The notes under the pieces are model-generated. The model did no database searches. It was not told the origin of the DNA and saw only the letters and a list, made by a program, of their open reading frames with translations. DNA of 64,000 bases, from the NCBI GenBank assembly GCA_951406725.2, contig OX597817.1, forward strand, positions 80,042,001 to 80,106,000, in the 5' to 3' direction. Positions 51,798 to 52,236 of this stretch are shown one piece after another (within the stretch, counting starts at the first letter, position 1; each line of letters starts with the position of its first letter). This DNA comes from Octopus vulgaris (taxonomy: Eukaryota). Position numbers and translations under genes: made by a program.

Positions 51798-52236
51798 ATT
51801 GTTATCGCCATATTAATATGGCATTCTTATAGATATAAGAATAATCGCTGCCGCTGGTCAGCTCCATGAGGCCACCGCCTTAAGATAGCTATTGATACAC
51901 GATCTGTATCCATTATAACCTTCGAACAGAGACGTCAGTGGCGACACCTGCGGTCTGACTGCGCTACATTGACAAGGGGCAATACCCCGAAACGCGTCTG
52001 TAGCTGTCGGACTGGCAGTGTGAAGCGGCTGACCTCCCTTGTTCGAAGGTTATAATGGATACAGATCGTGTATCAATAGCTATCTTAAGGCGGTGGCCTC
52101 ATGGAGCTGACCAGCGGCAGCGATTATTCTTATATCTATAAGAATGCCATATTAATATGGCGATAACAATTAATTTCCAGTAAACGCTGCCGTAATCTCT
52201 TTTATAGAGACTTAGTAATTTTAATATTTCTATTAT
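51798..52236. mobile_element. Fold-back element: perfect 131-bp inverted repeat (51798-51928 / 52040-52170) enclosing a hammerhead, plus 66-bp tail
   Basis: Arms checked base by base as exact reverse complements; TA-rich flanks; related fragment at 26094-26165. Confidence 0.9.
51963..52004 (+). ncRNA. Type I hammerhead ribozyme, U3-A8 core variant, predicted cleavage after C51998
   Basis: GCTACA-TTGACAA-GGGG-CAATA-CCCC-GAAA-CGCG-TC-TGTAGC: helix I GCTACA/TGTAGC, helix II GGGG/CCCC, palindromic ACGCGT helix III, GUC triplet. Confidence 0.82.

Follow-up and report, generated by a model that had tools for sequence, protein, structure and literature searches.

A stretch of 64,000 nucleotides of the Octopus vulgaris genome (the window) contains a perfect fold-back with a hammerhead ribozyme at its tip, which raises the question of whether the whole rod is a functional RNA or the trace of how a mobile element was inserted. 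Our analysis favoured the second answer. The fold-back was judged to be the insertion scar of a young, truncated copy of a Penelope-type retrozyme, with a structure that is ordinary for such insertions. We put at roughly 0.8 the probability that the window holds a 5'-truncated copy of a 362-bp hammerhead repeat which a Penelope-like insertion made into a fold-back, within the cycle described in the last section.

The fold-back and its ribozyme

The two arms (51798-51928 and 52040-52170) are complementary at 131/131 positions around a spacer of 111 nt, with a fold z of -35; no other perfect inverted repeat of non-simple sequence in the 64-kb window is as long. This confirmed the perfect 131-bp fold-back claimed in an earlier note, and the inward spacer pairings and two arm hairpins described there were both present. 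The parts of the locus, and a second insertion of the same family, are as follows.

51798..51928, - strand: inverted, 5'-truncated second monomer copy (positions 166-296) that stops at the 'short' 3' site, beside a TA-rich repeat
51917..51928, + strand: 12-nt microhomology junction, which is the monomer outer stem (43-54 pairing with 166-177)
51917..52236, + strand: forward copy of the 362-bp retrozyme covering monomer 43-362; subfamily A, youngest branch; 99.7% identical to a natural tandem unit of locus L003
51937..51953, + strand: equivalent of the LINE target site and putative transcription start (monomer 63-79)
51963..52004, + strand: type I hammerhead with U3-A8 core, 4-bp helix II and palindromic helix III, predicted to cut after C51998
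52052..52170, + strand: structured 3' half with hairpins 52126-52145 and 52146-52161 (monomer 178-362, z = -4.0)
52171..52236, + strand: 'tail' of ~62 nt running from the short 3' end (~52170-52176) to the long one (52236), compare the available parts of PMC11167929 and PMC8557442
52237..52244, + strand: candidate target-site duplication, 8 bp that directly repeat 51790-51797 within TA-rich DNA
26094..26165, strand not assigned: second insertion of the same retrozyme family, 72 bp, monomer 362-324 inverted, then 261-302

Since the final 12 bp of the left arm (51917-51928) already belong to the outer stem of the monomer itself, the inversion adds just ~119 bp. The same 12-nt junction, the longest overlap among the 62 inversion junctions analysed below, was also found in L025, L058 and L120 (4/62). 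The perfection of the arms had been presented as remarkable, which did not stand: an exactly identical 131-bp arm sequence is present in four other fetched loci, so the perfect arms reflect youth. The 3' half likely serves as the binding region for a mobilising protein, and its hairpins are retained despite altered sequence in the older copy L150. The 8-bp direct repeat could have arisen by chance.

In the hammerhead, helix I joins 51963-51968 to 51999-52004 and helix II joins 51976-51979 to 51985-51988 (GGGG/CCCC, + strand); the core comprises UUGACAA (51969-51975) and GAAA (51989-51992), and the palindrome ACGCGU (51992-51997) precedes C17 at 51998. Every element of a type I core was found in place (the 3-8 pair, U4 G5 A6, A9, G12 A13 A14, A15.1-U16.1 and H17), with predicted pair probabilities of 0.89-1.0 in helices I and II, and a scan of both strands of the window gave this as the sole hammerhead-like match with a helix I of at least 3 bp. 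The U3-A8 type I hammerhead with palindromic helix III was thus borne out. So was the expectation that standard searches would miss it, as an Rfam search matched no hammerhead model and returned microsatellite noise only.

Conservation in other copies, which the earlier note had named as a check, was evident for both the core and the helices. U3 and A8 were constant in 147/147 cores from 87 distinct loci, with C, A or U at position 7, a count biased to intact copies, as selecting loci for their best score or an exact core favours those that are young and intact. A pattern search leaving positions 3 and 8 free gave U3 and A8 in all of the first 100 matches listed, and the C3-G8 version of the exact window ribozyme had 0 matches in the genome. 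Compensatory changes were seen in all three helices: among 19 chosen copies from several subfamilies, 7/39 pairs had changed on both sides, namely two in helix I, one in helix II, one in the palindrome (ACGCGU to ACAUGU) and three in the rod. Slid alignments gave 0-2 such pairs, and relatedness of the copies inflates the shuffle test. C-to-T changes also recur at monomer 112 and 114, which belong to the 3' strand of helix II (L109, L111, L110, L115, L120 and others); they are common to the units of one array and keep the pairing as G.U.

The core variant is not rare, as had been supposed. In the available text of PMC4209133, the one paper in the literature searched that reports U3-A8, it is described for Schistosoma Penelope hammerheads with about 1,300 hits, and the octopus genome holds at least 1,602 exact cores. 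Related octopus retrozyme families carry the cores CUGAUGA, CCGACGA, UUGACGA and UUGACAA.

For a lone copy, the fold predicted to be favoured, by 1.5 kcal/mol, pairs the core with the cut site. In 6/6 natural tandems, folding predictions gave a double hammerhead a probability of 0.77-1.0 just after the second rod has been made, falling to 0.00-0.81 after 85 further bases. The U3-A8 ribozyme is predicted to cut only with two units in tandem, in keeping with the earlier proposal that the palindromic helix III is suited to dimer cleavage, although the fall after further bases counts against this. Lunse et al. reportedly described dimer cleavage of Penelope hammerhead variants in 2017. A start at position 64 was considered as the switch for the double hammerhead and rejected, as the 5' start had no effect and the 3' extent was decisive. 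For Xenopus, the accessible part of bioRxiv 2026.07.22.740005 reports that only 1/9 retrozyme dimers were cleaved in vitro.

A retrozyme family with tail-out inversions

The genome searched comprises 2.8 Gb in 227 contigs. A spacer query gave 1,268 candidates genome-wide, 40 of them scored, and three disjoint exact core patterns gave 346, 646 and 610 matches, with 0 for the reversed controls. In the fetched loci the head-to-tail period is a monomer of 362 bp, so that a high copy number and the presence of tandem copies, both of which the earlier note had asked about, were established. The monomer is short and non-coding, with one type I hammerhead per unit and both tandem and dispersed copies, which is what characterizes a retrozyme; its GC content is 42%, and its circle is predicted to be strongly self-paired (z = -7.8). 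Across the 87 mapped loci, units adjoin each other or TA repeats and no element ORF for an RT or GIY-YIG protein was found, contrary to the linked ORF that had been sought; the sole long ORFs there belong to an inserted LINE. Judged by its DNA, the family is a non-LTR retrozyme with Penelope-type insertion marks, and the earlier description of a young, non-coding, ribozyme-bearing retroelement of Penelope/retrozyme type was supported by this ORF-less repeat.

As in the animal non-LTR retrozymes treated in the available parts of PMC7229834 and bioRxiv 10.64898/2026.07.22.740005, the octopus family has a non-coding monomer of ~300-400 bp with GC under 45%, a type I hammerhead, units scattered singly or in short tandems, a circle predicted to be self-paired, and a proposed Penelope partner. 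It differs from what is described there in its U3-A8 core, its tail-out inversions in which a long end is coupled to a short one, its snRNA-promoter-like motif and its LINE target site. The main text of the Octopus vulgaris repeat paper PMC13282606 mentions no ribozyme, hammerhead or retrozyme. Among the sequencing runs listed as containing the repeat, none is recorded as RNA. Four of them are presumed to be RNA, and their contigs span the repeat, although such contigs are uninformative on cleavage, strand and level. Splice-donor-like (monomer 30-40) and acceptor-like (~298-306; window 52172-52180) motifs flank the ribozyme rod; no donor-acceptor joint matched in the contigs of the four presumed RNA runs, searched with a B-type unit only. 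Penelope pLTRs can contain introns.

Other hammerhead-like remains were noted nearby. An older repeat, 428 bp in period and with one piece inverted, occupies window 52481-53013, and its - strand has a CUGAUGA core, a 5-bp helix II with a long insert and the palindrome ACCUAGGU, with a helix I that fails to close directly; it is likely a decayed, unrelated retrozyme or pLTR. Decayed hammerhead-like remnants at 51490-51550 (+) and 51160-51220 (-) were recognized by eye and missed by motif scans.

For the inversion census, one of the 87 loci was dropped as lying at a contig edge. Inversions were present in 62/86 loci, all with their 3' ends outward (tail-out): 55 combined a long with a short end, one had two short ends, none had two long ends and six involved another end. 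In the 55 long-short loci, the short end lies at monomer 291-303 and the long end at 353-362. Both insertions in the window obey this rule, the fold-back with ends at 296 and 362, and the 72-bp insertion, which sits between (TA)n runs and has the same tail-out plan, with ends at 362 and 302. TA or TTA repeats adjoin 125/148 3' ends as against 8/24 5' ends. The two arms overlap by at least 2 nt at 31 of the 62 junctions, by 0-1 nt at 12 and not at all at 19.

Partial tandems, an inverted 5'-truncated copy, a one-sided tail and a microsatellite target, the marks of Penelope-like insertion, were all found. In the parts of PMC8557442 and PMC11167929 available, Penelope-like insertions share the partial tandems, inverted truncated copies, one-sided tail and (TA)n targets, the last three being given as known marks in PMC8557442, and PMC11167929 describes a Penelope protein that cuts and extends both strands and has two RNA start sites. 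Two RT start sites and cutting of both strands, which are presumed for the octopus family, as well as U3-A8 and a palindromic helix III are likewise common to the octopus family and the Penelope-like elements of PMC4209133 and PMC11167929, as far as their available text goes. The retrozyme differs from those elements in having no ORF and a tail of ~62 nt as against 30-40 bp. In the in vitro work covered by the same part of PMC11167929, no difference in start site between the strands was observed, whereas the retrozyme uses one site per end in 55/56 classifiable insertions. Tail-out inversion with a tail is therefore known Penelope behaviour, here close to a strict rule, and it is the close-to-strict coupling of the two ends that goes beyond the literature searched.

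These results suggest that the fold-back likely arose while a Penelope-like enzyme was inserting the element, as a locus-specific product with variable breakpoints. Variants private to one locus are common to both arms in L091, L095, L108, L109 and L115, and B-type units show 1.2 differences per 292 nt within loci compared with 6.6 between loci (41 and 1,729 pairs). From the shared private variants and the likeness of B-type units within loci, we infer that two cDNAs would have been primed on one, likely circular, RNA. Subfamily A units are hardly more alike within one locus than across loci (4.8 versus 6.1 differences, from only 5 pairs within and 698 between).

A different origin, in which a single cDNA folded on the element's own 12-bp stem and then copied itself, would fit the window taken singly, as the left arm exactly mirrors part of the right arm and begins at the natural stem, and the junction recurs in three other loci. 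A self-copied arm, however, cannot outgrow its template, and the short-ended arm is the longer one at 24/46 LINE-free loci, where this account fails because that arm exceeds its would-be template. At L006, one arm lacks positions 65-100 although the other arm has them. We regard self-copying as quite improbable.

Considerably less credible is the view of the earlier note that the whole 370-nt rod was selected as a functional unit, both self-cleaving and dsRNA-making. Its fold is very stable (z = -35) and the same junction recurs at 4/62 inverted loci, but the other 58/62 junctions lie elsewhere, and the four like junctions come from two subfamilies with opposite tail placement, which fits their independent formation. 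The ~370-nt rod capped by a ribozyme was thus not upheld as the unit, which is the 362-bp monomer with breakpoints that vary. Nor was an RNA that both cleaves and gives dsRNA supported, as the window copy has one ribozyme and is missing monomer 1-42, where the promoter-like motif is located. An assembly artefact or chance hairpin is hardly believable: the inverted repeat, as assembled, follows the rule of 55/62 inverted loci and of the second site in the window.

The coupling of two ends has a parallel in an abundant autonomous Penelope-like family (6,305 candidates, 717-aa frames in tandem), which was reached through a C-terminal fragment in the window (11942-12316, - strand; sharing about 90% identity with young copies across 58 aa). 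This family inserts in (TA)n and has two alternative ends separated by 67 nt; 5/5 of its inverted insertions with both ends visible carry one on each side. The retrozyme tail showed no significant likeness to its tail (304 and 127 of 1000 shuffles score at least as high) and its GIY-YIG match falls under the Pfam cut-off (E 0.013), so this family, the one autonomous family covered by the partner comparison, is an analogue and not a proven partner. At L140 (G000:C1:57.21-57.22 Mb), the family forms a tandem and inverted array with a hammerhead-like motif of CCGAAGA core in its pLTR.

LINEs and a promoter-like motif near the putative retrozyme start

Locus L061 carries a 5.4-kb LINE inside one retrozyme monomer, with a zinc-knuckle ORF1 and an APE-RT-zinc ORF2 whose nearest solved structure is that of human L1. 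The 3' end of this LINE matches the genome at 30 places; among the 27 examined, 21 join the retrozyme site (three via a LINE-duplication-LINE array), five lie elsewhere and one is ambiguous. At 94% identity or more, 16 of 18 LINE 5' ends are at the retrozyme site and two start with the first 16 nt of U1. The site is monomer 63-79, entered in sense orientation about 25 nt ahead of hammerhead helix I. The target duplication is 16 bp in 12/13 LINE copies and 17 bp in the 5'-truncated L103, and both ORFs are intact in 5/13 copies. No LINE insertions were seen in subfamily A, to which the window copy belongs.

In other retrozyme families, sister LINEs (ORF2 about 85% identical) precede helix I by 19-26 nt. 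The best 30 3' ends of one sister family comprise 22 at a retrozyme site (13 flagged by script, six by eye and three tandem), five at U2 +1, with U2 assigned by Rfam, and three elsewhere; for another LINE query, the best 30 comprise 11 clear cases (8 by script), four degenerate ones and 15 elsewhere. A tree of 16 LINE copies is grouped by retrozyme family, with the U2 copies falling within the third family, and copies under 0.5% apart occupy a retrozyme and U2 +1.

In its zinc-knuckle ORF1, L1-group APE-RT ORF2, fixed site and constant duplication, the inserted LINE resembles Tx1-type LINEs; the homologues obtained in a protein search carried no names. The available part of PMC4494074 describes Tx1-clade LINEs (Tx1L in Tx1D, Tx1-Mar, and Keno in U2) with the same APE-RT ORF2 and zinc-knuckle ORF1, 16-bp duplications, tandem target arrays, and transposon and snRNA gene targets. 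The octopus LINEs differ from those in targeting a hammerhead retrozyme, where they enter at the counterpart of U1/U2 +1, and in that a single family occupies U2 +1 as well as a retrozyme. A LINE lineage at a putative retrozyme start site goes beyond the literature searched, which held no paper on LINEs targeting retrozymes; Repbase, subscription journals and supplements lie outside that search and may hold these families.

Several LINE arrangements were observed besides these. At G000:C2:73.04-73.07 Mb (L081-L085, L100), five LINE 3' ends with LINE-duplication-LINE joints lie in a retrozyme cluster. LINEs at U2 gene +1 (L224, L229, L234-L241) have a 14-bp duplication, and at the 5' ends of L224 and L229 there is a short stretch similar to the target in another retrozyme family, a hint that the target was switched recently. 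In one LINE subfamily (L184, L198, L104, L105, L219), the copies begin with 16 nt of U1; L184 lies within the U1 cluster on C18, and off-target copies join sites with a U1-like start. Degenerate hammerhead-like repeats lie directly behind the 3' ends of a more distant LINE subfamily (L276, L284, L286, L287).

The LINE might instead have entered the repeat once, the composite then being copied as Penelope cargo without ongoing targeting. Five full-length copies on five contigs are indeed 0.1-0.2% apart with a shared flank haplotype and junction base, distances between the LINEs correlate with those between their flanks (Mantel r 0.48-0.68), and L092 joins a truncated LINE head to head with an inverted arm. 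Because the distances correlate, some LINE copies may have moved with the repeat, and L092 may be a co-mobilised piece. As a general account, however, this is unlikely. The shared haplotype is merely abundant (646 units), and at least four flank haplotypes were hit. L103 is 5'-truncated yet flanked by the duplication on both sides, LINE-duplication-LINE arrays exist, and LINE-free units with identical private variants stand beside LINE-bearing ones. Sister LINE clades, moreover, occupy the equivalent position in U2 and in other retrozymes.

Upstream sequence points to a link between the same position and snRNA genes. A TCAGT-centred motif, which we take to be the PSE, lies about 57 nt before +1 of U1 (8/8 loci) and of U2 (the three with upstream DNA visible). 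When a U1/U2 matrix, built on about 4 independent sequences, was applied to six retrozyme upstream regions, the site at positions -56 to -58 relative to the LINE insertion point ranked first of 562 in 4/6 and second in another; in the remaining region it was not among the top three. In subfamily A the promoter-like match is weak (4.7 bits, monomer ~3-22). These motifs suggest that retrozymes likely use an snRNA-type promoter, and an snRNA-promoter-like motif in retrozymes goes beyond the literature searched.

A proposed cycle and its meaning

Intact tandem arrays would be transcribed from the snRNA-type element about 57 nt before monomer ~64. Neighbouring hammerheads are predicted to pair via the palindrome and to excise a monomer, which would be ligated into a circle. 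A Penelope RT/GIY-YIG dimer would then cut both strands at a (TA)n site and two cDNAs would be primed on one RNA, at ~300 and ~362, possibly in several rounds. The two cDNAs would join head to head, often via a few matching bases, as the observed junctions suggest; in the window, the joining bases would be the element's own 12-bp stem. The product would be a tail-out inverted repeat with the 62-nt tail at one end only. Young L1-group LINEs, as the sequence pattern shows, insert at monomer 63-79 of sister subfamilies and duplicate 16 bp there; they likely borrow the repeat's promoter and may be trimmed by its ribozymes. The single window copy is probably inert, as it has neither the likely snRNA-type promoter nor a partner ribozyme.

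A broader reading, which we hold tentatively and at somewhat less than even odds, is a three-tier parasite system of retrozyme circles with an snRNA promoter, a two-site Penelope dimer that would fire two RTs from two fixed circle sites, one per DNA end, and a LINE homing to an snRNA-type +1. If it is true, the LINE at +1 of several retrozyme families, U2 and U1 borrows transcription and sits between two hammerheads. The LINE copies in a retrozyme and at U2 +1 offer material on how LINEs change targets, and the related families retain a path from C3-G8 through U3.G8 to U3-A8 within a natural hammerhead core. The motif common to U1/U2 upstream regions hints at what transcribes animal retrozymes. 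The long-short pairing, together with arms from the same template, provides a testable twin-start model for Penelope inverted repeats on a tiny substrate.
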